From contig JBDLKA010000105.1 of assembly GCA_039714075.1 (NCBI GenBank), forward strand, positions 1 through 11,842: a stretch of 11,842 nt of DNA, read 5' to 3'. Below, piece by piece: positions 1 through 11,842 of this stretch. The position numbers and the translations under genes were made by a program. Under the pieces are notes generated by a model. It searched no databases and was not told where the DNA came from. It saw only the letters and a list, made by a program, of their open reading frames with translations. Each line of letters starts with the position of its first letter. Position 1 is the stretch's first letter. This DNA is from Candidatus Krumholzibacteriota bacterium. GTDB taxonomy: Bacteria > Krumholzibacteriota > Krumholzibacteriia > LZORAL124-64-63.

Positions 1-2
1 AC

Positions 3-1133
3 GAGATCATCGTCGGCACCGTCCAGCAGGTGGACCGGGGCAACGTCCTGGTCAACCTGGGCCGCACCGAGGCCCTGATGCCCTACCGGGAACAGATCCG
101 CGGTGAAAAACTGCACCAGGGCAAGACCGTGCGCGCGTTCATCACCGAGGTCCTGGACAGCGCCAAGGGGCCGCAGGTCATCCTGTCGCGCAGCCACCCG
201 GGTTTCCTGAAGTCGCTCTTCCACATGGAAGTGCCGGAGATCCAGGAGGGCATCGTCGAGATCAAGGCCGTGGCCCGCGAGCCGGGCACGCGTTCCAAGA
301 TCGCGGTGACCAGCAACGACGAACGGGTCGATCCCGTCGGATCGTGCGTGGGCATGAAGGGCAGCCGCGTGCAGGCCGTCACTCGCGAACTGGCGGGCGA
401 GCGGGTGGACATCGTGCCCTGGAGCGCCGAGGCCAGCCTCCTGATTTCCCGCGCCCTGAGCCCGGCCATCGTCAGCAACATCATTCTGCACCGGGACCGC
501 AACGAGGCCACCGTGGTGGTGGGCGAGGACCAGTTGAGCAAGGCCATCGGCAAGGAAGGCAAGAACGTCCGGCTGGCGGCCAAGCTTACCGAATGGAAGA
601 TCGACCTGGTCAGTTCGCGCGAGTACGCCGTCCGCCAGCGGATCACCGACGAGATGACCATGAAGCTGGGCGAGATGGAAGGTGTCGGCGAGGACCTGCT
701 GATCCTGCTGGAGCAGATCGGGATCCTGACCATCGAACAACTGGCCGACGCTTCACTGGAAAAACTGCAGGAGATCCCCAATCTGGAAGAGGAAGCCCGG
801 GAAAGCCTGCAGGCCACGGCCCGCGTCACCCGGGACGAACTGCGCAAGATGATCGAAAAGACCATCGCCGAGGAAATGGAGAAGGAGGCCGCCGAAGAAC
901 GGCCCCTCTTCGACGAGGATGCCCTCGGTGACGAGACGGCCGGCGCGGAAGAAGACGGCGAAGCCGCCGCCGAAGAACCCGCTGCGACCGAAGAGGACAT
1001 CTTCAAGGATTTCCCCGAGCAGGGTGATGGCGAAGACGCCGACGCCAAGTCCGGCGAAGACGGCCAGGCGGACGGCGATGATGACGAGGGCAAGAAAGTG
1101 GACCCGTTCGCCAACACCGAACTCGATGACTGA
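3..1133 (+). CDS. nusA: Transcription termination/antitermination factor NusA, 5'-truncated by the window edge
   Basis: The frame is open from position 3 (EIIVGTVQQVDRGN...). It contains the S1-domain end 'GPQVILSRSHP', KH motifs 'AREPGTRSKIAV', 'DPVGSCVGMKGSRVQAV' and 'LSKAIGKEGKNVRLAAKLTEWKIDL', then an HhH-like segment (EMEGVGE...LQEIPNL) and an acidic tail. It lies upstream of infB as expected. Confidence 0.98.
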   Translation, partial: EIIVGTVQQVDRGNVLVNLGRTEALMPYREQIRGEKLHQGKTVRAFITEVLDSAKGPQVILSRSHPGFLKSLFHMEVPEIQEGIVEIKAVAREPGTRSKIAVTSNDERVDPVGSCVGMKGSRVQAVTRELAGERVDIVPWSAEASLLISRALSPAIVSNIILHRDRNEATVVVGEDQLSKAIGKEGKNVRLAAKLTEWKIDLVSSREYAVRQRITDEMTMKLGEMEGVGEDLLILLEQIGILTIEQLADASLEKLQEIPNLEEEARESLQATARVTRDELRKMIEKTIAEEMEKEAAEERPLFDEDALGDETAGAEEDGEAAAEEPAATEEDIFKDFPEQGDGEDADAKSGEDGQADGDDDEGKKVDPFANTELDD

Positions 1134-1143
1134 CGGAAGTGTC

Positions 1144-1464
1144 ATGACTGAGGAAGCTACTCGAAGTCAGGCAGATAAGCTGCTCGGATTGTTGGGCTTG
1201 GCGCGGCGGGCCGGAAGGCTCGGCATGGGTGTCAGCGCGGTGGAAAAAATGGTCCACAAGGGTGAAAATCCCCTGGTGATCACCGCCGTGGACATCGGCG
1301 ACAGTCTCAAGGGCAGGGTTTCCCGTTGGGAGCCGGTGCGAGGCGTGGTGGCCGATGTCCTGACCGGCGAGGACCTGGCCCGGGCCCTGGGCCGCGAGAA
1401 GCTCGCGGTGGTCGGAGTGAGTGATTCCGGATTCGTCAAGGGAATCCGGAAGTTGGGCTACTAG
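1144..1464 (+). CDS. L7Ae/L30e-family (YlxQ-like) RNA-binding protein, ~106 aa
   Basis: 'LLGLLGLARRAGRLGMG...VITAVD...LARALGREKLAVVGVSDSGF' is the typical L7Ae/YlxQ pattern, in its usual position between nusA and infB. The start is taken as ATG 1144 (GGAAG upstream); an alternative in-frame ATG at 1126 overlaps the end of nusA. The track's start at 919 is an upstream extension inside nusA. Confidence 0.9.
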   Translation: MTEEATRSQADKLLGLLGLARRAGRLGMGVSAVEKMVHKGENPLVITAVDIGDSLKGRVSRWEPVRGVVADVLTGEDLARALGREKLAVVGVSDSGFVKGIRKLGY

Positions 1465-1531
1465 ATTGATATTCCGTTTGCTGTGCCGTCATACGGACGG
1501 CCCCGGCAGCGGATCCAATGGTGATGTCGGT

Positions 1532-1537
1532 GGAGGT
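1532..1537 (+). promoter_or_regulatory. Shine-Dalgarno site of infB (GGAGGT)
   Basis: GGAGGT lies 8 nt before the TTG at 1546 (in-frame GTG at 1549 is an alternative start). Confidence 0.8.
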
Positions 1538-1545
1538 AACCGATC

Positions 1546-4467
1546 TTGGTGAGGAAGCTGAGAGTTTACGAACTCGGTCGCCACTATGGTGTCGACAGTA
1601 AACAGATCATGACTCTTCTGCAGAAGATGAAGGTGCAGGTCAAGAGTCATATGAGCGTGGTCGAGGATGATGAAGTCGACCGCGTTCATTCCGTATTCCA
1701 GCGGAAACGTCAGTTGGCCCGGGAGAACTATGCCAAGGCGCATAATCTCAATCCCGACCAGTTGAAGAATGTCGCCGCCCTCAAGCCTCTGGAAAAGCCG
1801 GAAGCCCCCGAGGAGCCCAAAACCAAGAAGAAGCCGGCCAAGAAAAAAGCCGCGAAAAAGAAGAAGGCGCCCGCCAAGCCCAAGGTCGTGGTCATAAAGA
1901 AGGCCGGGCAGATGACCAAGGTGGCGAAAAAAGCCAAGGCCGCCAAGGACGCCGAAGACAAGGCCAAGGTGGCCGAAGCAGCGCGCAAGGCCGAGGAAAA
2001 GGAACGCCGGGAAGCGGAAATGGCTTCCAAGCGCGAAGAGCACGCCAAGTCCCGCATCGTCAAGAGCACGGCTGCCAAGCTGGTCAAGAAGGTGGATGTC
2101 GACAAGGCCCGGGAAGCCGAAGAGGCGAAAGCTGCTGAAACGGCTGAAGCTGTTGAAGCGGAGGAAATCGCCGACCAGATTGAAGATGCCCCCAAGGTGG
2201 ATCCCACCGCCGGTTTGGATGCCGAGGCCCCTGTCGCGGATGCCGAACCAACGGAAACCGAAGAGGCGGTCGATACCGGGGCGGCCGAGGAAACCGAAGG
2301 CGCCGCGGAAACAGCCGAGACTCCCGAGGAAGTCGCCAAGGCCGAAGCCGACGATCCCCTCGACAAGGTGGGAACCAAGAAAAACGACGGCTTCAAGGTG
2401 GGCGACATCATCAAGCCCGCTCCCAAAGTGAAGCGTCCCAAGCCCTCGAAACAGGAAAAGCCCCAGGCGGAAGTCAGCAGCGCTTCGGTGCGTGATTCCA
2501 TCAAGGCGGCCATCCAGCGCCGGCAGGATGAAGCGGCCGCGCGCGAGGAATCGACCTCGCGCCGCAAGCGGACCCGCAAGAAGAAGAAGAAGGTGGATCA
2601 GGCCGAGGTCGATCGCGCCCTGAAGCAGACCATGGCCGCGATGGACGGCGCCGGCGGCAAGAAGAAACGCAAGAAGGGTGAAAAGGCCGACGAAGAGGAA
2701 GTCGTCGTCGAAACCGCCGTATTGAAGCTGACCGAGTTCATCACGGTCCAGGAACTGGCCGACAAGATCGGGGTCAAGTCCCAGGAGCTGATCGCCAACC
2801 TGTTCTCGATGGGCATCATGGCAACCATCAACCAGCGCCTGGAGAAGGACAACATCGAGTTGCTGGCCGCCGAATTCGAGCGCGAGGTCGAGTTCCTCAC
2901 CGAAGTCGGCGAGGACGTGCTGGAAACCGAAGATGTGAAGGACGAGGACAAGACCGACCGCCCGCCGGTGGTGACGGTCATGGGTCACGTAGACCACGGC
3001 AAGACCTCGCTGCTGGACAGTATCCGCAAGACCAACGTCATTGCGGGCGAGGCCGGCGGCATTACCCAGCATATCGGCGCCTACACCGTGCAGACCGACA
3101 GCGGTCCGATCACCTTCCTGGATACCCCGGGTCACGCGGCCTTCACGGCCATGCGCGCCCGCGGCGCCCAGGTCACCGACCTGGTGATCCTGATCGTGGC
3201 GGCCAATGACGGCGTCATGCCCCAGACGGTGGAGGCCATCAGCCATGCCAAGGCCGCCGGGGTGCCCCTCATCGTCGCGGTGAACAAGATCGATCTGCAG
3301 GATGCGACACCCGACCGGGTGAAGCAGGAACTGCTGCAGCACGAGATCGTGGTGGAGGAATATGGTGGCGATGTGCTCTGCGCCGAGATTTCGGCCAAGC
3401 AGGGGATCGGCATCGAGAAGCTTCTCGAGCAGGTCCATCTGCAAACCGAAGTCCTGGAATTGAAGGCCGGCGCCACCGGTCCGGCCCGCGGGGTCGTGGT
3501 CGAAGCCAAGAAGGAGCCCGGCCGTGGAGTCCTGTTCACCGTGCTGGTGGACCAGGGCACCATGAAAAAGGGCGACAACTTCCTGGTCGGCATGACCGAC
3601 GGCAAGGTGCGGGCGCTGCTGGACGAACGCGGCAACAAGCTGACCGAGGTCAGGCCGGGCGAACCCTGCGAGATCCTGGGCGCCAACGACGTGCCCGAGG
3701 CGGGCGACCGCTTCTACGTGGTGGAGAACGAACGGCAGGCCCGGGAGTTGGCGGACAAGCGCCGCCGCCTCCAGCGCCAGCAGCAGATCGTCAGTCCCAA
3801 GGTCGTCATCGACCTGGACAACCTGGCCGAGCTGATGACCACCGGCGAGTTGAAGGAACTGCCCATCATCATCAAGGGCGACGTGGCCGGTTCGGTCGAG
3901 GCCCTGGCCGATCAGCTCATGGAGTTGAACACCGAAGAGGTCCAGGTCAAGGTCGTGCACAAGGCCGTGGGCGCGGTCAGTGAATCCGACGTCCTGCTGG
4001 CCGCCAACACCGGCGCCATGATCATCGGTTTCCACATGCGTCCGGGTCCGGCCATCCTCGAGAGGGCCAAGGCCAACAACGTGACCATCGAGGTCTTCGA
4101 TATCATCTACGAGGCCGTCGACACCCTCAAGAAGGCCATGGCCGGCCTGCTGGGTTCCATCCAGCGCGAGGTTTCGACGGGCAAGGCCTCGGTGCGCCAG
4201 GTCTTCCGGATTCCCAAGGTGGGGTCGGTGGCCGGTTCGATGGTCATCGAAGGCATCATCAAGCGCAACAGCATGGCCCGCCTGGTCCGTGACGAGGTCA
4301 TGATCTGGGAGGGCAAGGTCAACTCGCTGAAACGCTTCAAGGACGACGTCAAGGAAGTTAAGGAAGGCTACGAGTGCGGGATCGGGCTGGAGAACTTCTA
4401 CGAGATCCAGGAAGACGACGTCCTGGAGTGCTACGAGATTGAAGAAATCGAAAGGACCGAGCTGTAG
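1546..4467 (+). CDS. infB: Translation initiation factor IF-2 (973 aa, long low-complexity N-terminal region)
   Basis: IF2_N 'LRVYELGR', second IF2_N 'ITVQELADKI', G-domain motifs 'RPPVVTVMGHVDHGKTSLLD', 'GEAGGITQHIGAY', 'FLDTPGHAAFTAMRARGA' and 'NKID', and C-terminal 'SLKRFKDDVKEVKEGYECGI'. Confidence 0.99.
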   Translation: MVRKLRVYELGRHYGVDSKQIMTLLQKMKVQVKSHMSVVEDDEVDRVHSVFQRKRQLARENYAKAHNLNPDQLKNVAALKPLEKPEAPEEPKTKKKPAKKKAAKKKKAPAKPKVVVIKKAGQMTKVAKKAKAAKDAEDKAKVAEAARKAEEKERREAEMASKREEHAKSRIVKSTAAKLVKKVDVDKAREAEEAKAAETAEAVEAEEIADQIEDAPKVDPTAGLDAEAPVADAEPTETEEAVDTGAAEETEGAAETAETPEEVAKAEADDPLDKVGTKKNDGFKVGDIIKPAPKVKRPKPSKQEKPQAEVSSASVRDSIKAAIQRRQDEAAAREESTSRRKRTRKKKKKVDQAEVDRALKQTMAAMDGAGGKKKRKKGEKADEEEVVVETAVLKLTEFITVQELADKIGVKSQELIANLFSMGIMATINQRLEKDNIELLAAEFEREVEFLTEVGEDVLETEDVKDEDKTDRPPVVTVMGHVDHGKTSLLDSIRKTNVIAGEAGGITQHIGAYTVQTDSGPITFLDTPGHAAFTAMRARGAQVTDLVILIVAANDGVMPQTVEAISHAKAAGVPLIVAVNKIDLQDATPDRVKQELLQHEIVVEEYGGDVLCAEISAKQGIGIEKLLEQVHLQTEVLELKAGATGPARGVVVEAKKEPGRGVLFTVLVDQGTMKKGDNFLVGMTDGKVRALLDERGNKLTEVRPGEPCEILGANDVPEAGDRFYVVENERQARELADKRRRLQRQQQIVSPKVVIDLDNLAELMTTGELKELPIIIKGDVAGSVEALADQLMELNTEEVQVKVVHKAVGAVSESDVLLAANTGAMIIGFHMRPGPAILERAKANNVTIEVFDIIYEAVDTLKKAMAGLLGSIQREVSTGKASVRQVFRIPKVGSVAGSMVIEGIIKRNSMARLVRDEVMIWEGKVNSLKRFKDDVKEVKEGYECGIGLENFYEIQEDDVLECYEIEEIERTEL

Positions 4468-4641
4468 GGGCCGATGGTTCTGACGGCCCGACCATTGCCC
4501 TGCGGGGACGCCGGCCTGGAACATCGTGTTCCAGGCCGGCTTGGCTTCCGGCGCTCTCCGCCATCCATGGCTCCGAGCGCCTCCAGACACCCCGCAGGAC
4601 AACGGTCGGGCCGTCAGAATCATCTACTTCCTACAGCCCGG
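4457..4641. repeat. Branched palindromic element (REP/REPIN- or MITE-like): long terminal inverted repeats enclosing two hairpins
   Basis: 4473-4507 and 4590-4624 form a 35-bp inverted repeat with 3 differences. An outer arm, 4457-4468 / 4630-4641, matches 11/12 and contains GTAG (4464-4467) / CTAC (4631-4634). Inside are a perfect 14-bp hairpin (4510-4523 / 4527-4540) and a second hairpin GGCGCTC-tcc-GCCAT-cc-ATGGC-tcc-GAGCGCC (4550-4581). The structure is certain; the family assignment is inferred. Confidence 0.8.
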
Positions 4642-4677
4642 CACTCCCAATTTTCCCTTCCCAGTACTCCTTGAGTG

Positions 4678-4706
4678 TTTACCCGGACCTGTGGCGGGCT
4701 TATCCT
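4678..4706 (+). promoter_or_regulatory. Possible internal sigma70-type promoter for rbfA-DHH/truB/ribF
   Basis: TTTACC (4678-4683), a 17-nt spacer, then TATCCT (4701-4706), about 35 nt upstream of the ATG at 4741. Each hexamer matches consensus only 4/6. Confidence 0.35.
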
Positions 4707-4740
4707 GTGGGCAAGGAATCAATCAACTGTAAGGATGGAA

Positions 4741-6183
4741 ATGGATCCCTATCGCACGAATAAACTGAACCAGTCGATACTCGAAGTGCTCAGCCAGCTC
4801 ATCCAGGTTTCGGTCAAGGATCCGCGGGTGGGGTTCGTGACCCTGAATGCGGTGAAGCTGAACCGGGACCACTCCGTGGCGCAGGTCTTCTACTCCGTCA
4901 TCGGGGACGAGGAGGAGCGCAAGAAGAGCTTCCAGGGCCTGAAGAAGGCCAAGGGTTTCATGCAGAGCAAGCTGGTGCGTACGCTGGGACTGCGGCAGGC
5001 GCCGGAGCTGCGTTTCGCCTATGATGATTCGGTCGAGAAGGGTCTGGAGATGGACGACATCCTGGACGACCTGAAGCGAAAGGGCGAATTCCTGACCGAA
5101 GAGGAAAAGAAGCGCATGTTGTGTCTGGACGACATCCATCCTCCGGCTGAACTCATTCTCGGCCTGAGGGAAGCCAGGTCCGTCTGGGTGGTGCCCCATC
5201 ACAATCCCGATCCGGACGCCATCGGCAGCGCCCTGGCCCTGGGCGAAGCCCTGCGGACCATGGGGCGCGAGGTCCGGGTCATGGCCTATCCCGATCCCCC
5301 GCTCGGTTTGAAGGATCTGCCGGGTTACGACCTGGTGACCGTCAGCGACCAGGCCGAGGCGATCTACGCCGCGGAAAAACCGGAGCTGCTGGTTCTGGTG
5401 GACTGCCACCGCATCGACCGCACCGGACCGTTGGAAGACACGCTGGGCCGCTTTGAACAACAGCTCTGCATCGACCACCACCTGGTCAGCGGCCGCAAGG
5501 CCCCGGTGCCGGGCTGGGTCGAGGCGCGCTCCTGTTCCACCTGCACCCTGATTCACCAGACCATCACCACTTTGGGCAAAGGGGATGAGGAATTCGGCGA
5601 CGATCCCTTCGAACTGTCCCTGGACATGGCGACCAACCTGTACGCGGGCCTGATCAACGACACCGGCGGTTTCCGCTTTTCGAACACGTTGCCGTTCACC
5701 TTCGAAATCGCGCGCCGCCTTTCGGCAATGGGCGTCGATACCGCCGCGGTGGCCAACGCCACTTTGCATCGCTACCGCCGCGAAGGTGTGGCCATGCTGC
5801 AGCGCGTGCTGTCGACCTTCGAATACCACGCCGGCGGCCGGGTCCTGACGCTCAATGCCACCCTGGAGATGCTGGATGAAACGGACGGCAGCATGTCCGA
5901 TACCGAAGGGTTCGTTAACATCGCCACGGCGGTGGACGGGGTCTGCCTGGTCGCGTTCTTCAAGGAACTCGAAAAGGATGTCTGGCGCGTATCGTTGCGG
6001 GTCTGTGGTCAGGGCGACGTGCAGACCATCGCCGCCAGATACGGAGGCGGTGGTCACAAGATGGCCGCCGGCTGCACGGTCGAAGGACCCCTGGAAGAGG
6101 TCACCGCGATGCTGGCGGCCGACCTGTCGGTCGCTCTGCCGGAGGCCATGACCGATGGCCGGACGGGCAACCGACCGGGATGA
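4741..6183 (+). CDS. rbfA: Fusion protein: ribosome-binding factor A (N-terminal ~115 aa) plus DHH/DHHA1 phosphoesterase (NrnA-like oligoribonuclease/pAp phosphatase), 480 aa
   Basis: The N-terminus has RbfA motifs 'KDPRVGFVT', 'AQVFYS', 'LKKAKGF' and 'LRQAPELRFAYDDS'. It continues in frame, without a stop, into DHH motifs 'HHNPDPDAIGS' (5197), 'LVDC', 'IDHH' (DHH at 5473-5481), 'LINDTGGF', and DHHA1 'VSLR...YGGGGHKMAAG'. AAGGA at 4731-4735 favours ATG 4741 over the track's start at 4675. Confidence 0.93.
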   Translation: MDPYRTNKLNQSILEVLSQLIQVSVKDPRVGFVTLNAVKLNRDHSVAQVFYSVIGDEEERKKSFQGLKKAKGFMQSKLVRTLGLRQAPELRFAYDDSVEKGLEMDDILDDLKRKGEFLTEEEKKRMLCLDDIHPPAELILGLREARSVWVVPHHNPDPDAIGSALALGEALRTMGREVRVMAYPDPPLGLKDLPGYDLVTVSDQAEAIYAAEKPELLVLVDCHRIDRTGPLEDTLGRFEQQLCIDHHLVSGRKAPVPGWVEARSCSTCTLIHQTITTLGKGDEEFGDDPFELSLDMATNLYAGLINDTGGFRFSNTLPFTFEIARRLSAMGVDTAAVANATLHRYRREGVAMLQRVLSTFEYHAGGRVLTLNATLEMLDETDGSMSDTEGFVNIATAVDGVCLVAFFKELEKDVWRVSLRVCGQGDVQTIAARYGGGGHKMAAGCTVEGPLEEVTAMLAADLSVALPEAMTDGRTGNRPG

Positions 6184-7199
6184 TTGCCGTGGACGGCATC
6201 CTGCTGATCGACAAACCCGCCGGTGTGACTTCCTTCAAGGTGGTGAACCAGGTCCGCCAGGCCCTGGTGGCCGCCTTTCCCGAGCTGGCTCCCCGCCGGG
6301 GCCGACGTCCGGCTGGTGTTCCCAAACCACCTCGTTTCAAGTGCGGCCACGCGGGCACCCTGGACCCCTTGGCCACGGGCCTGCTGGTGGTGCTGGTGGG
6401 CAAGGGGTCACGCCTGGCTCCGTTCCTGCTGGGGCAGGACAAGACCTATGCGGCCACGGTCCGTTTCGGTTCCGTCACCGACACCCTGGACAGGGACGGT
6501 GAAGTGGTCGGCACTGCGCCCGCGCCGGCGAATCCCGAAGCCGTAGCCGACTGCCTGCCTTTGTTCCGGGGCGAAATCCAGCAGGTCCCCCCGGTCATTT
6601 CCGCCCTCAAGAAAGACGGACAGCCCCTGTACAAACTGGCCCGTTCGGGTCAGGATGTTCCCGAACCCGACGCCCGTCCGGTGACGATCCACCGGCTGGA
6701 CATGACCGCTTCGGCCTGGGGTGTGCCCCAGGATGATCCGGTATACGAGGTGGAACTCGAGGTGTCCTGCTCCAGCGGAACGTACATTCGTTCCCTGGCC
6801 CGGGATCTGGCCCGGGCCGCCGGCAGCGAAGGGCATATCCACAGCCTACGCAGGCTGGAAGTGGGGCCGTTCAAGGTTGCCGACGCGGCCAGCGGTGTCA
6901 TGGAAAAGGATGGCGATGATCTGGCGGCCTCTTTGCTTCGGTTGAGCGCCGCTTTGCCCCACGTGCCGGCGGTCACCTTCGATGCGACCGAAGCCGCCGC
7001 GATCCGGCAGGGACAGCAACCTGGGGAGGATCTGCTCGAACGTCTGGATGGTGAGCCCGTTGCCGCGGGCAAGGCGGGCCGCCTGTTCCGGATCCTCGAC
7101 GCCGACGGCGACCTGGTGGCCGTCGGTAAAATCGATGAAACGACGGGCCGGCCCGTGCTGGCTGCCGTCATACCGCGGGATGATGCTCCCGCCGACTAG
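6180..7199 (+). CDS. truB: tRNA pseudouridine(55) synthase TruB
   Basis: Motifs 'GILLIDKPAGVTSF', 'GHAGTLDPLATGLL' (catalytic Asp), 'KTY', 'TDTLDRDG', 'QVPPVISALKKDGQPLYKLAR' and 'CSSGTYIRSLARDL'. ATGA overlap with the upstream stop (6180-6183) suggests translational coupling. Confidence 0.97.
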   Translation: MIAVDGILLIDKPAGVTSFKVVNQVRQALVAAFPELAPRRGRRPAGVPKPPRFKCGHAGTLDPLATGLLVVLVGKGSRLAPFLLGQDKTYAATVRFGSVTDTLDRDGEVVGTAPAPANPEAVADCLPLFRGEIQQVPPVISALKKDGQPLYKLARSGQDVPEPDARPVTIHRLDMTASAWGVPQDDPVYEVELEVSCSSGTYIRSLARDLARAAGSEGHIHSLRRLEVGPFKVADAASGVMEKDGDDLAASLLRLSAALPHVPAVTFDATEAAAIRQGQQPGEDLLERLDGEPVAAGKAGRLFRILDADGDLVAVGKIDETTGRPVLAAVIPRDDAPAD

Positions 7200-7228
7200 T
7201 TTGTGCAGAGCGTGAAGGAGGTTCGTGC

Positions 7229-8314
7229 GTGCGACTGATCCGACTGACGGCCGACTACATCGGCGAGATCATCGCCGGAAAGATCGGCACCAACCGTCCC
7301 CAGCTGGAATCCTGCGCCCTGGCCCTGGGGTCCTTCGACGGACTCCATCGCGGGCATCAGGAGCTGATCCACGGGGTCCGGGCCTCCCGCGACCGCCTGG
7401 GCCTGGAGGCGGGTGCCCTGTTCACCTTCATGCAGCATCCCCGCCAACTGCTGGATCCCCGGGCCGAACCCTTTCTTCTGACCACCTGGCGCGCCAAGCT
7501 GGCCCTGCTGCAGGAGCTGGAATGCCAAGTCATCGTGGCCGCCGATTTCTGCCCGGAACTGTCCCGCCTGGGTTATGAGGAATTCGTGGAAAAGTTCCTC
7601 GTCGGCTACCTGGGCATGAAGCATCTGGTGGCGGGTTACGACACCCACCTGGGGTCCGACCGGCGGGGTACGGCCGCCACGCTGGAGGAACTGGGAGCCA
7701 AGCTGGGATACACGGTCGAGGTCATCCCACCGGTCAAGGCCCGGGAGCAGATCATCAGCAGTTCGGCCATCCGCCGGGCCCTGGCCGCCGGGGATCTGTC
7801 GCTGGCCAGTGCCATGCTCGGCCGGCCCTACGCCATCTGGGGCGAGGTGACGCCCGGCGACCGCCGCGGACGGGAAATCGGCTTCCCCACGGCCAACATC
7901 CAGCCCCTGGAAGCCATGAAGCTTCTGCCGGAAACCGGGGTCTACGCCGCCAGGGTCCAGGTGCCGGGTGACGTGGTCGCTCCGGGCACGCCCGGTGTCC
8001 TGGAACGCGTGACCGAATCCCTGCCCGAAGTCGATCTCCAGGGCGACATCCTGAGCGCCGCGCCCAGTGACTGGGCCATTTTCGGCGGGATGCTCAACTT
8101 CGGCCACGTACCCACCTTCCACGGCGAAGGGTTGGTCGCCCCTCGTGTCGAGGCCAACATGTTCGGCTTCGAGGGGGACCTGCGCGGCCGCAATGTGAAG
8201 GTCGAGTGGATCGAAAAGCTTCGTCCGGAACGGAAGTTCGGGGGGGCGGATGAACTGATCGCCCAGTTGAACAAGGACCAGGAACAGGCCCGTCGGGTTC
8301 TGGGCCTGGACTGA
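7229..8314 (+). CDS. ribF: Bifunctional FAD synthetase / riboflavin kinase
   Basis: 'GSFDGLHRGHQ' and 'ISSSAIR' (FMN adenylyltransferase), then 'GDRRGREIGFPTANI', 'GVYA', 'NFGHVPTF', 'VEAN' and 'LRPERKF' (kinase). GTG start with AAGGAGG at 7215-7221; usual position after truB. Confidence 0.96.
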   Translation: MRLIRLTADYIGEIIAGKIGTNRPQLESCALALGSFDGLHRGHQELIHGVRASRDRLGLEAGALFTFMQHPRQLLDPRAEPFLLTTWRAKLALLQELECQVIVAADFCPELSRLGYEEFVEKFLVGYLGMKHLVAGYDTHLGSDRRGTAATLEELGAKLGYTVEVIPPVKAREQIISSSAIRRALAAGDLSLASAMLGRPYAIWGEVTPGDRRGREIGFPTANIQPLEAMKLLPETGVYAARVQVPGDVVAPGTPGVLERVTESLPEVDLQGDILSAAPSDWAIFGGMLNFGHVPTFHGEGLVAPRVEANMFGFEGDLRGRNVKVEWIEKLRPERKFGGADELIAQLNKDQEQARRVLGLD

Positions 8315-8317
8315 CCT

Positions 8318-9283
8318 TCAGCCCGATCGGCGGGCGATCTGCTCGGCGATGGCCTCGTTGATATCGATCGCCACGGCCAGGGCGTCCCGGCCTTCGGCCC
8401 CCGTCACTTCGACGGGATGTTCACCCCTGACGGCCTTGATGAACGACAGCAGTTCCTCGCGCAGGTTGTCCGTCTCACCGTGTTGCATCACTTCAGGCAC
8501 GACCCGGGGTTCGCCCCCGGTGACAGGCACGCTGGTGGCGATGACGTTTTCCCTGGTGGCGCAATCCGCGGACAGATAGGTCCCTTCCTGGAAGATGCGG
8601 ATCTTGCGCATGTCCTTCAGGGAAATCCGGCTGGCCGTCAGGTTCACGGTGCAGCCGCCGGCGAAGGTCAGCCGGGCGTTGGCGATGTCGAGGTTGGGCG
8701 TCAGCACGGGCAGACCCGAGGCGCGGATTTCCTCGAGCGGTGATTTCACCAGCGACAAGACGATGTCGATGTCGTGGATCATCAGGTCCAGAACCACGTC
8801 CACGTCGGTGGCCCTGTTCTTGAATCCGCTCAACCGGTGGGCTTCGATGAACAGGGGGGTGCCGCATCTTTCCCTCAGAACGCGCACAGCGGGATTGAAC
8901 CGTTCGAGATGGCCGGACTGCAGGACGACACCCCGGTCGGCGGCCAGGGCGATCAGTTCGTCGGCCTGGGCCACCGTATTGGTCAGGGGTTTTTCCAGCA
9001 GGGTGTGGATGCCGGCCTCGAGGAGGGGCTTGGCCACCTCGAAATGGTAGGTGTTGGGCACCACCACGCTGGCGGCCTGGATTTCACCGAGCACCTCGCC
9101 CAGGTCGGTACAGGCCCGGCCACCTGATTCGGCGGCGACAGCCTCGGCCCTGGCGCGGTCGACGTCGACCACGGCGACCAGTTCGACGTCGTCCATGGCG
9201 GCGTATTTCTGGGCGTGGAAGCGGCCCAGGTAGCCGGTGCCGATGACGGCGGCCCTGATCTTGTTTTCTTTTGAATTCGGCAT
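8318..9283 (-). CDS. Gfo/Idh/MocA-family NAD(P)-dependent oxidoreductase, resembling UDP-GlcNAc 3-dehydrogenase (GnnA-type)
   Basis: Rossmann motif 'AVIGTGYLGRFHA', 'LEKP', 'GHLERFNPA', 'DVDVVLDLMIHDID', 'DIANARL' and 'NLTASRIS...RKIRIFQ'. The family call is confident; the substrate is inferred. Confidence 0.88.
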   Translation of the reverse strand: MPNSKENKIRAAVIGTGYLGRFHAQKYAAMDDVELVAVVDVDRARAEAVAAESGGRACTDLGEVLGEIQAASVVVPNTYHFEVAKPLLEAGIHTLLEKPLTNTVAQADELIALAADRGVVLQSGHLERFNPAVRVLRERCGTPLFIEAHRLSGFKNRATDVDVVLDLMIHDIDIVLSLVKSPLEEIRASGLPVLTPNLDIANARLTFAGGCTVNLTASRISLKDMRKIRIFQEGTYLSADCATRENVIATSVPVTGGEPRVVPEVMQHGETDNLREELLSFIKAVRGEHPVEVTGAEGRDALAVAIDINEAIAEQIARRSG

Positions 9284-9289
9284 TCCCGA

Positions 9290-9317
9290 ACTTTAACCCA
9301 TGGCCGCAAGCGGGCAA
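9290..9317 (-). promoter_or_regulatory. Putative sigma70-type promoter of the oxidoreductase (likely leaderless transcript)
   Basis: On the - strand: A7 tract (9320-9326), TTGCCC (9317-9312), 16 nt, TAAAGT (9295-9290), 6 nt, ATG (9283). Confidence 0.5.
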
Positions 9318-9349
9318 CATTTTTTTGGGGGATAAGCCCAGGCCGGGGG

Positions 9350-9378
9350 TTGACCGGGCGTAACCTTTGTTGAATAAT
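9350..9378 (+). promoter_or_regulatory. Putative sigma70-type promoter of the polysaccharide export gene
   Basis: TTGACC (9350-9355), a 17-nt spacer, then AATAAT (9373-9378). Both hexamers match consensus 5/6, in an AT-enriched divergent intergenic region. Confidence 0.6.
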
Positions 9379-9459
9379 CCTCCGGTAACCCCAGCCAGAT
9401 ACGATGCACCGAGTCGGGTGAATTCCCCGTGGGTTTTCCGGCCAGAGAGGGCCCCCTTG

Positions 9460-11842
9460 ATGACATTCAACTATAAGTTGCGCAGGGTCTTGACACTTTC
9501 CCTGCCTGCGGTTGCGCTCTTCGTCGTGGGTCTTGTCCTGCTGGCGCCTGTGGTGGTTTCCGCCCAGGGAATCACCCCGGAAATGCTGGAAGAGGCCTCC
9601 CGGCGGACGGGGCTGAGCAAGGAACAGCTGCTGCGCCAATATCAACAGGGGACGGATCAACCCGCCGCTGCCGCGGATACGGCGCAGGCTCCGGTACCCG
9701 GTCGAACCTCCCTCGAAGGAATCGACGACACCGTCCCCTGGCGCGATACCGACGTCCAGGTCACGCTGCCGATGTCCGATGTTGTCGGTTATGAGGAATC
9801 CCCGGGCCTGGTGGAGGAAGACCTGCAGGGGAATGACCCCGACACTTTTTTCGGTTCCGATTTTTTCCGGCTGGATGCCGGTGTTTTTCAACCGCCCTCC
9901 TTCGGCCCGGTGCCCGACGACTACCGCCTGGGCGTGGGGGACGAGGTCATCATCAACGTCTGGGGCGGGGTCGATCTCCAATTGACCCGGGTGGTGGACC
10001 GCGACGGTTCCGTCATCCTGCCCACCGTCGGCAAGATCACGTGTGCCGGACGCACCCTGAAGCAGGTGGACGAGTCCATCCGCAAGCGGCTGGCCACCAC
10101 CCACGCCAGCATCGATGTCGACGGGTACGACGGCGAGGACGACGGGGACACCTTCGTCGAAGTGACCATGGGGCACCTGCGGGCCGTGCGGGTTTTCGTG
10201 ATCGGACGGGCCACGCGGCCGGGCTCCTACGAACTGAGTTCGGCTTCCACGATTTTGACCGCGCTCTATGCCGCCGGCGGTCCCACCGACCAGGGTTCCT
10301 TCCGGGACATCCGGTTGGTGCGCGGCGACAAGACGGTCGCCAACCTCGATCTCTACCGGTACCTGATGGGCGGCGGCCGCGACATGGACGCCCTGCTGCA
10401 AGAAGGCGACACGGTCTTCATCCCCGAACGCGGGACCGGCGTTTCGATCGCCGGCGCGGTGCGGCGCCCCATGCACTACGAGATGAAGGACGGCCAGGGC
10501 CTGGCCGACCTGATCGGATATTCCGGTGGATTCACACCGACGGCGGCACCGGGGATCATTCACATCCGTCGGATTTTGCCCCTGGATCAAAGGCAGCCCG
10601 GTCAGCCCGACCATGTTTTCCTGGACGTGCCCTTCGATGTCACCGCCATGGCCGGCGACGACGGCCGGCCCGTTCCCCTGTTGGACGGGGACCAGATCAG
10701 CGTGGACGGGATCGAGGACCGGCTGGACAACTGGGTCCGCGTTTCCGGGGCGGTAAAAAGGCCCGGCGAGTACGAATTCAAACCCGGGATGACGGCGCTG
10801 GACCTGATCGAAGCCGCCGGCGGCCTGTGGCCCGACGCCCTGACCGAGCGGGCGGTGATCGACCGGACCAGCCCCGAGCGGCAATTGTCGACCGTGGCGG
10901 TGGCCCTGGATGAAATGCTGTCCGGGGCGGTGGCGCCCGTGGATCTGCAGGGACAGGATGTCCTGGAGGTATTCTACCGCTGGGACATTCAGGAACGCCC
11001 CCAGGTAACCATCACCGGCGAGGTGAACGACCCGGTATCCCTGGACTTCCGCGAAGGCATGACGCTGCGCGATCTGGTGCTCAAGGCCGGCGGCCTGCGC
11101 CAGAGCGCCAACCTGCTGGAAGCCGAGGTCTCCCGGTTGAATGTTGAAGCCCTGGAAAACCCGGACACCAGCCTGCGGCCGGACCGGACGGTCGATGCCC
11201 TCAAGGTTTCCCTGGGCAGTGATTTCCTGACCCGCGAAACCGGTTTTGCCCTGCAGCCACATGACCGGGTCGCCATCCGGCGCCTGCCCTGGTGGGAGAT
11301 GCAGCGGACGGTCACCATCCGCGGCGAGGTTTTCTACCCCGGCGTGTTCAGCCTCGAACGAAAAGACGAAACCATCTCTTCGGTGATTTCCCGGGCCGGG
11401 GGCCTGACGCCCGACGCCTACCTGGTCGGGGCGCGCATCATCCGCAGGCAGGATGGCGTGGGGAACATCGCCCTGGACCTGATGGAAGCGCTTTCGAAGC
11501 CCGGGTGCCAGTACGACATCGTTCTGCAGGCCGGTGACCAGATCGTCATTCCCGACCGCATGTACACGGTGAAGGTCATGGGGGAGGTGGGCTTCCCGAC
11601 CAGCCTGGTCCACGAAAAGGGCAAGGACATCAACTGGTATGTGAATCATGCCGGTGGGTATCTCAACAAGTCGGACAAGAAGCGGGCCCGGGTGGTCTGG
11701 CCCAACGGCATGTCCCTGCCGAACAAGGGTGGCAGCGAGGTGGTGGCCGGATCGACGATCATCGTGCCGGTGAAGCCGCCGCCGGAGGGGAAGACTAAGC
11801 TGGAGACGGCACGGGACATCACTGCGATCATAGCCAGTCTGG
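9460..11842 (+). CDS. Polysaccharide export (OPX; KpsD/Wza-related) protein with Poly_export domain and six SLBB-type repeats, >794 aa, 3'-truncated
   Basis: Manual translation gives no stop from ATG 9460 (GAGAGGG upstream) to the window end. It begins with a signal peptide, MTFNYKLRRVLTLSLPAVALFVVGLVLLAPVVVSA|QG, with no lipobox Cys. Poly_export motif: 'PVPDDYRLGVGDEVIINVWG...VDRDGSVILPTVG'. The repeated 'V.G.V..PG.Y...L.D.I..AGG...L..GD.I.IP' units begin at VFVIG, VSIAG, VRVSG, VTITG, VTIRG and VKVMG. The C-terminal helix 'ARDITAIIASL' starts at the window edge. Confidence 0.93.
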   Translation, partial: MTFNYKLRRVLTLSLPAVALFVVGLVLLAPVVVSAQGITPEMLEEASRRTGLSKEQLLRQYQQGTDQPAAAADTAQAPVPGRTSLEGIDDTVPWRDTDVQVTLPMSDVVGYEESPGLVEEDLQGNDPDTFFGSDFFRLDAGVFQPPSFGPVPDDYRLGVGDEVIINVWGGVDLQLTRVVDRDGSVILPTVGKITCAGRTLKQVDESIRKRLATTHASIDVDGYDGEDDGDTFVEVTMGHLRAVRVFVIGRATRPGSYELSSASTILTALYAAGGPTDQGSFRDIRLVRGDKTVANLDLYRYLMGGGRDMDALLQEGDTVFIPERGTGVSIAGAVRRPMHYEMKDGQGLADLIGYSGGFTPTAAPGIIHIRRILPLDQRQPGQPDHVFLDVPFDVTAMAGDDGRPVPLLDGDQISVDGIEDRLDNWVRVSGAVKRPGEYEFKPGMTALDLIEAAGGLWPDALTERAVIDRTSPERQLSTVAVALDEMLSGAVAPVDLQGQDVLEVFYRWDIQERPQVTITGEVNDPVSLDFREGMTLRDLVLKAGGLRQSANLLEAEVSRLNVEALENPDTSLRPDRTVDALKVSLGSDFLTRETGFALQPHDRVAIRRLPWWEMQRTVTIRGEVFYPGVFSLERKDETISSVISRAGGLTPDAYLVGARIIRRQDGVGNIALDLMEALSKPGCQYDIVLQAGDQIVIPDRMYTVKVMGEVGFPTSLVHEKGKDINWYVNHAGGYLNKSDKKRARVVWPNGMSLPNKGGSEVVAGSTIIVPVKPPPEGKTKLETARDITAIIASL

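Follow-up and report, generated by a model that had tools for sequence, protein, structure and literature searches.

Many bacteria carry a gene for an NrnA-type nanoRNase beside infB and rbfA, an arrangement that has awaited an explanation since 2014 (PMC4081065). The question takes a concrete form in a contig of the uncultured bacterium Candidatus Krumholzibacteriota (assembly GCA_039714075.1, contig JBDLKA010000105.1, positions 1 to 11,842; this whole stretch of 11,842 nt is denoted the window), in which a single gene encodes both the 30S maturation factor RbfA and a DHH/DHHA1 nuclease of the NrnA type (denoted NrnA′ in mycobacteria). Is this rbfA::nrnA′ gene genuine, how did it arise, and do the two halves of its product share a task at the ribosome? 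The analysis described here leaves hardly any doubt that the fusion is real and bifunctional in sequence; the complete proposal, that is, a real fusion combined with a specific mechanism at the 30S subunit, is assigned a probability of about 0.45.

RbfA and an NrnA′-type nuclease in one reading frame

The stop-free open reading frame (ORF) of the fusion extends from 4675 to 6183 and yields 480 amino acids when translated from the ATG at 4741, a start that agrees with the relatives, in which M-D-P-Y is found in 108–120 of the 121 sequences of the family alignment. All Pfam domains of the product score above their cut-offs, namely RBFA (PF02033; residues 5–108, 101.4 bits versus 34.7, E = 4.2e-29), DHH (53.3 bits versus 28.1, E = 4.5e-14) and DHHA1 (35.5 bits versus 25.9, E = 1.5e-08). 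A complete RbfA and an intact DHH/DHHA1 module in one frame, as first proposed in a preliminary description of the window, are conserved across the family.

The RbfA module also passes the NCBIfam rbfA equivalog model TIGR00082 (96.4 bits versus 51.15) and, in a search of Protein Data Bank (PDB) chains, aligns with the RbfA proteins of Staphylococcus aureus, Haemophilus influenzae and Escherichia coli. In this alignment, A70-K71-G72-F73 is matched to ASGF of the E. coli chain 7afl_V, so that F73 corresponds to E. coli F78; within the fused family, the AxG-F motif is retained almost without exception (A70 in 117/121, G72 in 118/121 and F or Y at position 73 in 121/121 sequences). An AlphaFold2 (AF2) model built from the 121-sequence alignment, with a mean predicted local distance difference test score (pLDDT) of 94.2 and a predicted template modelling score of 0.81, superimposes over residues 1–117 on the 30S-bound S. 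aureus RbfA 8byv_A with a Z score of 15.0 and a root mean square deviation (rmsd) of 2.5 Å over 115 aligned residues. The fused module shares the type-II KH fold, the AxG-F motif and the KDPR loop with stand-alone RbfA proteins, such as those of E. coli (7afl, 7bog), S. aureus (8bxa, 8byv) and Thermus thermophilus (2dyj), and presumably binds the same 16S rRNA 3′-end site as these (PMC8177701). However, stand-alone RbfA consists of 95–133 amino acids and carries no enzyme domain, whereas the fused family bears a nuclease of 360 amino acids on the C-terminal helix and has lost four conserved basic residues.

The preliminary description had noted that several usually basic RbfA positions appear neutral, naming the segments AQVF and GFMQ. 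The latter holds: position 75 is Q in 105/121 family members, R in 13/15 class relatives (14 unfused proteins and the fused one of genome G142, which belongs to a sister family) and R or K in 41/46 other fused proteins. The same pattern extends to positions 14 (L in 106/121 family members versus R in 14/15 relatives), 83 (G in 111/121 versus R in 15/15) and 103 (E in 63/121 versus R in 10/15). Position 48 of AQVF is variable in all groups compared, and the core A70-x-G72-F73 is retained. Basic residues have also been gained in the family (K68, K69, R/K71, K/R77 and R80), with a mean net charge of +0.9 compared to +1.8 in the relatives. Invariant or nearly invariant positions comprise K26-D-P-R29, D43, A47, G66-L67, A70-x-G72-F73, R85, P88, F92 and D95.

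In the nuclease module, the motifs named in the preliminary description (DxD, D, DHH, DTG and GGGGH) were all recovered, as H153/D157/D159, D221, D245-H246-H247, D307-T308-G309 and G435-H439, and these catalytic and substrate-binding motifs align with those of Mycobacterium tuberculosis Rv2837c. In the 121-sequence alignment of the fused family, H153, D159, D245-H246-H247, D307-T308-G309, S418, R420 and G436-H439 are invariant, and D157 and D221 nearly so. The best solved sequence relatives are Rv2837c (E = 2.1e-30) and Mycobacterium smegmatis MSMEG_2630 (1.1e-29), followed by TM1595, and chains of Bacillus-type NrnA are more distant (8.1e-17 for 8iu7 and 2.7e-13 for 5j21); by search score alone, the module lies nearer to the NrnA′ proteins of mycobacteria than to NrnA of Bacillus. 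Moreover, it falls below the cut-off of the NCBIfam NrnA equivalog model NF053633, for bifunctional oligoribonuclease/PAP phosphatase (82.9 bits versus 350), and therefore is not an equivalog of Bacillus-type NrnA by that model. Residues 133–472 of the AF2 model match TM1595 (5o4z) with Z = 36.3 and an rmsd of 2.2 Å over 320 residues. Given the intact motifs and the biochemistry of the relatives (PMC4081065), activity on nanoRNA, 3′-phosphoadenosine 5′-phosphate (pAp) or linear dinucleotides is predicted.

Like the fusion, the mycobacterial proteins MSMEG_2630 (4ls9) and Rv2837c/CnpB (5jju, 5cet) possess the DHH/DHHA1 fold with all catalytic motifs and are encoded after rbfA. Mycobacterial NrnA′ folds match the model with Z scores of 34.2 (Rv2837c) and 28.2, at an identity of only about 29–31%, but are separate polypeptides of about 340 amino acids, whereas the module described here is covalently attached to RbfA via a conserved 21-residue linker. 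The gene neighbourhood infB-rbfA(-nusA), a feature of the NrnA′ subfamily (Srivastav et al. 2014), is present in the window. NrnA of the Bacillus subtilis type (5j21, 5iuf) and TM1595 share the fold (Z scores of 28.4 and 36.3, respectively) but fall into a different clade of NrnA, in which the genes are flanked by other neighbours (PMC4081065).

In its own genome, which is 92% complete in 260 contigs, the fusion gene is the sole RBFA match, and the only other DHH protein is RecJ (TIGR00644, 440 bits). The fusion is the genome's only RbfA and its only NrnA-type enzyme. Among the four RNase_T-type proteins of this genome, the two that were scanned gave no match to an Orn model.

The genome search covered 201 genomes of the phylum (Krumholzibacteria-type), all of one class, with 86 in the GTDB family of the window and 114 in eight other families. 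The fusion protein is matched in 78 of the 86 family genomes. It is full-length in one piece in 60 of these (from residue 1, or in three genomes residue 2 or 10, to residue 457 or beyond); 13 more span the junction in one piece and are broken at other points, where the contig ends, extra sequence is inserted or the DHH part is frameshifted; and in the remaining 5 the gene is truncated by a contig end on one or the other side of the junction. A separate rbfA stop followed by a DHH start occurs in none of the 78 matching genomes. The 8 unmatched genomes are 69–94% complete; a single genus accounts for five of them, and the fused gene is present in four further genomes of this genus. The fusion spans at least 29 genera, down to 46–48% identity, and no reversion is seen in the 73 genomes that cross the junction. 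In 16 loci read base by base (15 from the family and G142), no junction stop or frame change was found, a TGA that falls inside the gene in 2 of the 16 being the natural stop in the C-terminal tail.

Public sequence collections agree. All three Pfam domains are present in each of the 120 best proteins listed from a collection of 5.8 billion (approximately 60–87% identity), which derive from JGI, ENA, NCBI and Logan and one of which is named Candidatus Krumholzibacteriia. Logan contigs from two marine-metagenome runs of one study cover the junction itself: in run X1, which may be the source sample, one contig with a depth of 16.8 spans 4600–5717 with 0 differences and no insertion or deletion (indel), and in run X2, which holds a strain variant, contigs over 4649–5099 and 5070–5197 are gap-free. 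Accordingly, between 5070 and 5120, where the preliminary description had considered that a stop codon might have been missed, neither the related genomes nor the contigs of the two runs contain a stop or an indel. Purifying selection acts on the linker as well as on both halves of the protein. The preliminary description had also left undecided whether the RBFA+DHH+DHHA1 architecture was already catalogued; it is present in public protein collections, also from Deltaproteobacteria/Myxococcota and Hydrogenedentes, under the names ‘30S ribosome-binding factor RbfA’, ‘RecJ-like’ and ‘NrnA’, and no paper describing an RbfA-DHH fusion was found in the literature searches.

Three family loci depart from the simple pattern in other respects. 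In two genomes of genus g2 (G008:C144:54205-55743 and G043:C6:103428-104921), two-piece matches lie inside one open frame of 582–598 amino acids, with about 50–105 extra bases near query residue 285 that represent an insertion within the DHH domain of a fused protein. In the third (locus L035, G198:C5:391700-394500; genome 68% complete in 20 contigs), the fused gene lies in at least 4 pieces in different frames with 3 TGA codons, its RbfA part being 85% identical; this locus reflects either numerous assembly errors or a pseudogene.

Origin and recurrence of the fusion

Outside the family of the window, 111 of the 114 genomes match the query, and the two halves are separate in all but G142. Among 16 such genomes of the class, the genes are adjacent in 10, with rbfA preceding the DHH gene, and unlinked in 6, which belong to families f4 and f5 and represent all six genomes of these two families in the set. 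That NrnA-type genes sit separately beside rbfA, as stated in the preliminary description, is thus seen in class relatives and holds for mycobacteria as well (PMC4081065); of the narrower statement that they lie between rbfA and truB, the adjacency to rbfA stands, and truB as the next gene was seen at one locus only (Cryptobacterium). At loci L036–L038 and L040, which come from Syntrophaceae UBA5761, Cryptobacterium sp. CAG:338 and Raoultibacter sp., the DHH gene lies immediately downstream of rbfA in a different frame; the apparently full-length matches from these bacteria were therefore rejected as fusions and represent unfused neighbours.

The key to the origin of the fusion lies in the sister family f6. 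In its genomes G076 and G034, the stop codon of rbfA and the start codon of the DHH gene share the sequence ATGA, and the product of the latter has the N-terminus MSFVPY(A/P)PP(K/A)EL. Given this overlap, one frame change suffices, and the fusion arose in the ancestor of one family, when a frame change abolished the ATGA overlap of the adjacent, translationally coupled rbfA and nrnA′.

The linker bears the marks of this event. It reads GEFLTEEEKKRMLCLDDIHPP and contains the charged stretch KRKGEFLTEEEKKRMLCLDDIHPPAEL to which the preliminary description had correctly drawn attention. Among 122 family proteins it is strongly conserved (G115 in 122, E116 in 112, F117 in 114, L129 in 121, D131 in 114 and P135 in 117, followed by L138 in 121), and it is predicted to be ordered (AF2 pLDDT 90–93, with a short helix at 120–125). 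The segment ...KKRM126-L127-CLDDIHPPAEL of the window aligns with the DHH N-terminus of the sister family, from which it follows that the residues from about 127 onwards are the old NrnA′ N-terminus and that the ATG-TTG of codons 126–127 is a relic of its start; the linker thus joins the end of the former RbfA to the beginning of the former NrnA′. Consistent with a relic, 70 of 122 proteins have a Met within residues 122–128, at a background frequency of Met of 2.4%, and codon 127 is ATG in 3, TTG in 5 and CTG or CTC in 8 of 16 family loci. In each of the 5 genomes read from the genus of the window, a purine-rich GA(G/A)GAAAAG precedes an ATG, which lies at codon 124, 126 or 127; the spacing between GAGGA and ATG is 4, 10 or 13 nt. 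The relic start seems to be decaying; internal initiation is possible in this genus but is probably not a conserved feature.

The fusion in G142 (locus L016, G142:C70) is its own, reading ...EEMRFIPYPPPPDL with the old start retained in frame. Two genomes of the same genus, G034 (L017) and G076 (L018), retain the ATGA overlap, and the RbfA tail of G034 is about 60 residues longer. In a quick IQ-TREE phylogeny of 45 rows, computed from the DHH-DHHA1 columns only, the fused genes of the family form one clade (Shimodaira-Hasegawa-like approximate likelihood ratio support of 100) nested in a clade with the unfused sister family (support of 99), and the fused G142 pairs with the unfused G034. Six changes between the fused and split states are needed on this tree, at least 4 of them forced by strongly supported branches. 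Approximately unbiased (AU) tests, with groups chosen after a tree had been inspected, rejected a single clade of all fused rows (log-likelihood difference 323, p = 1.05e-5) as well as one uniting the family with G142 (difference 47, p = 0.009). An earlier count of 33 fused/split changes from a 167-row FastTree phylogeny was set aside, as each cluster may be represented by its longest protein and weak nodes were numerous, and is replaced by the IQ-TREE and AU results.

Fusions are also found beyond the phylum. In a HMMER search, 19,186 of 1.84 billion cluster representatives matched at E ≤ 0.001; among the best 150 of these, 55 are at least 400 amino acids long, and in these together with the query RBFA and DHH are present in 56/56 and DHHA1 in 55/56. 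Most of the 55 are only 27–36% identical to the window protein. A second fused clade (query P0135 and 47 clusters, at 51–63% identity) shows the three domains in all of the first 48 rows, and in 61 of the 120 rows listed; its NCBI names, for clusters at 90% identity, are ‘RbfA [Deltaproteobacteria bacterium]’ and ‘[Myxococcota bacterium]’, and its nearest unfused relatives are NrnA proteins of the Geobacter/Desulfuromonadaceae type (44–49% identity). Another fused protein, at a greater distance, is encoded in a metagenome-assembled genome of Candidatus Hydrogenedentes. These fusions and that of G142 resemble the one in the window in having the same three-domain order derived from the same neighbouring genes, but differ in their separate origins, in linkers that are of other lengths and cannot be aligned, and in the retention of the basic RbfA positions. 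The comparison of sequences thus indicates that the RbfA-DHH-DHHA1 fusion is recurrent, with independent origins in the family, in G142 and in other lineages.

A possible role at the 30S subunit and its alternatives

In cryo-electron microscopy structures, E. coli RbfA lies on the 3′ end of 16S rRNA, with F78 stacked on A1534-C1535, and the authors speculated about an unknown partner in 16S 3′-end trimming (PMC8177701). M. smegmatis MSMEG_2630 is co-transcribed with infB-rbfA, degrades 5-mers with a preference for 2-mers, degrades a 35-mer RNA in the 3′-5′ direction and hydrolyses pAp (PMC4081065). Taken together, an RbfA positioned on the 16S 3′ end and a 3′-5′ exonuclease of the NrnA′ type make a tethered trimming or clean-up enzyme plausible. 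The RbfA module, for which 30S binding and a function in 16S maturation are expected given that it is the sole RBFA match in the genome, would bind within the mRNA exit channel of late pre-30S subunits, where, like E. coli RbfA, it would hold the 16S 3′ end. The nuclease, tied to the C-terminal helix of RbfA via the short ordered linker, would be brought beside the single-stranded 3′ end, where it would degrade short oligonucleotides released by 3′-trailer trimming or itself remove the last few nucleotides. Off the subunit, the fusion protein would serve as the general nanoRNase and pAp phosphatase of the cell; as the only NrnA-type enzyme in the genome, it must also provide for nanoRNA and pAp turnover. 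Genuine functional coupling at the 30S subunit is tentatively favoured, at slightly less than even odds.

Several observations weigh against this proposal. NrnA-type enzymes favour substrates of 2–5 nt, and the direction of degradation by B. subtilis NrnA is disputed, being 5′-3′ or bidirectional in other reports. YbeY, commonly regarded as the candidate nuclease for the 16S 3′ end, is present in 128/128 genomes that are at least 90% complete, including 57/57 of the fused family, and replacement of YbeY by the fused nuclease was accordingly rejected. In families f4 and f5, rbfA and the DHH gene lie apart, which indicates that tight coupling is not universal, and the loss of the basic positions 14, 75, 83 and 103 could weaken 30S binding. 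Finally, one indel suffices to fuse genes that overlap as ATGA, so that the recurrence of the fusion could reflect ease rather than benefit.

The strongest alternative follows from these points, namely that the fusion is neutral or tolerated: an indel merged two coupled neighbours, the modules work independently, and nothing was gained beyond equal dosage. Such an event takes one step from the ancestral ATGA overlap and was repeated recently in the single genome G142, the closest relative of which, G034, is unfused; the unlinked genes of f4 and f5, the universal retention of YbeY and the need for the sole NrnA-type enzyme to handle bulk nanoRNA also fit independent modules. However, a neutral fusion sits less easily with retention over the known breadth of the family without reversion, with a linker that is strongly conserved and predicted to be ordered rather than a free tether, and with the repeated joining of the same two partners, a pair that is co-transcribed and syntenic far beyond the phylum (PMC4081065). 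On balance, neutrality stays a serious contender, somewhat short of even odds and nearly as likely as a tethered trimming or clean-up enzyme.

Less is to be said for a re-purposed RbfA module, that is, one that is no longer an assembly factor and acts as a KH-type arm feeding single-stranded RNA to the nuclease. The family-specific loss of the four basic positions agrees with this scenario, which is nevertheless improbable: the module is the only RbfA in the genome, KDPR, AxG-F and the other core positions are (nearly) invariant, the new basic residues hold the net charge near that of the relatives, and the other independent fusions retain the basic positions. Even more doubtful is the view that the locus effectively comprises two genes, with internal initiation at ATG 5116 or TTG 5119 yielding free NrnA′ as the main active form. 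The purine-rich sequence followed by ATG in all genomes read from the genus of the window and the enrichment of Met would be expected from this, but the CTG or CTC at codon 127 in 8 of 16 loci leaves half of the family unable to make a separate NrnA′ in this way, and the shifting position of the ATG and its spacing from GAGGA point to a decaying relic and not to a kept site; a maintained internal start is hence unsupported across the family. An assembly or sequencing artefact, or a very recent stop loss, which might be suspected in a metagenome-assembled genome of 260 contigs, has a negligible probability, being refuted by conservation of the same frame in about 73 family genomes and 120/120 listed proteins from several sources and by the indel-free contigs of two runs.

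The tethered-enzyme proposal can be taken one step further. In eukaryotes, the PIN endonuclease Nob1, a separate protein, is paired with Pno1 at the 3′ end of 18S rRNA. Bacterial RbfA has been compared with eukaryotic Pno1 (PMC8177701). In an extended and, in all, unlikely version of the proposal, NrnA′-type enzymes would act as the partner with which RbfA works on the 16S 3′ end. The fusion would then serve as a Rosetta stone, recording that RbfA and NrnA′ form a physical unit, and this bacterial equivalent of Pno1-Nob1 would trim or proof-read the last 3′ nucleotides of 16S rRNA, which comprise the anti-Shine-Dalgarno sequence, on the late pre-30S subunit; the same would apply to the unfused operon pairs of many phyla, mycobacteria included. 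The parallel with Pno1-Nob1 is one of analogy only, as the proteins are non-homologous; the RbfA half alone is documented (PMC8177701), and rRNA cutting by the DHH module is hypothetical.

Genomic context and significance

The fusion gene belongs to an operon-like row on the + strand, nusA - small ORF - infB - rbfA::DHH - truB - ribF (Table 1), downstream of which a GFO/IDH/MocA oxidoreductase on the - strand and then a polysaccharide-export protein are encoded. A scan of 4300–8500 detected no promoter-like or terminator-like sites, and no Rfam match was obtained anywhere in the window.

Table 1. Coordinates of the rbfA::nrnA′ fusion gene, its parts and its neighbours in the window
Feature	Position (nt)	Strand	Description and basis
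rbfA::nrnA′ fusion gene	4741..6183	+	480 codons and TGA stop in a single frame; Pfam RBFA, DHH, DHHA1
Shine-Dalgarno-like AAGGA	4731..4735	+	5 nt upstream of ATG 4741; sequence reading
RbfA module	4741..5082 (residues 1-114)	+	type-II KH fold, A70-K71-G72-F73; Pfam, TIGR00082, alignment to PDB RbfA chains, fold match
Conserved linker	5083..5145 (residues 115-135)	+	GEFLTEEEKKRMLCLDDIHPP; counts in 122 family proteins, AF2
Relic nrnA′ start, ATG-TTG	5116..5121 (codons 126-127)	+	GAGGA at 5101-5105, 10 nt upstream; alignment to sister-family starts
DHH catalytic domain	5182..5649 (residues 148-303)	+	motifs I-IV; Pfam, PDB alignment, family alignment
DHHA1 substrate-binding domain	5884..6114 (residues 382-458)	+	S418/R420, GGGGH 435-439; Pfam, PDB alignment, family alignment
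nusA	3..1133	+	5′ end truncated by window edge; Pfam
infB (translation initiation factor IF2)	1546..4467	+	upstream gene in the operon-like row; Pfam
truB	6180..7199	+	ATG overlaps the TGA of the fusion as ATGA, 6180-6183; Pfam
ribF (flavin adenine dinucleotide synthetase/riboflavin kinase)	7229..8314	+	Pfam

The 412-nt gap between nusA and infB contains an ORF of 106 codons (1144–1464, +), MTEEATRSQADKLLGLLGLARRAG, with a sub-threshold match to Ribosomal_L7Ae (E = 6.5e-4, 19.8 bits versus a cut-off of 22.1). It presumably resembles the YlxQ-type gene of the L7Ae fold that is sited between nusA and infB in Bacillus. The encoded NusA ends in a strongly acidic tail of about 90 residues, rich in E, D, A and G (870–1133), and IF2 begins with about 390 low-complexity residues rich in K, A and E ahead of its IF2_N domain (1546–2700). 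An ORF of 888 amino acids on the - strand (8983–11649), which has no Pfam match and runs antisense to the Poly_export/SLBB gene at 9367–11841 (+), is most likely a shadow ORF of G+C-rich DNA.

With regard to other ribonucleases, a search for exoribonucleases with an RNB domain (RNase R/II) detected none in the window's own genome (G000, 92% complete). Among 128 genomes of the phylum, RNB is found in 4/57 of the fused family (f1), the matches being short forms of about 500 amino acids, in 9/9 of the sister family f6, 3/3 of f2, 11/11 of f5, 4/26 of f3, 1/8 of f4, 0/4 of f7 and 1/8 of f8. A link between the fusion and the loss of RNase R/II is non-specific, given that RNB is also mostly missing from the unfused f3, f4, f7 and f8 and is present in the fused G142, and the pattern is treated as patchy loss of a major 3′-5′ RNase within one phylum, unrelated to the fusion.

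A conserved fusion that has arisen repeatedly is a classic sign, in comparative genomics, of a functional or physical link. The 2021 work on RbfA left room for a protein that assists in positioning or trimming the 16S 3′ end (PMC8177701), and the fusion offers a ready-made single protein in which such a link could be tested. Should the fusion reflect genomic convenience only, its value for annotation remains, as each current name leaves one half of the protein out of sight. The uncultured marine bacteria of this family have no RbfA and no nanoRNase candidate other than the fusion, and the joined genes hint at, without proving, a shared job at the maturing ribosome.

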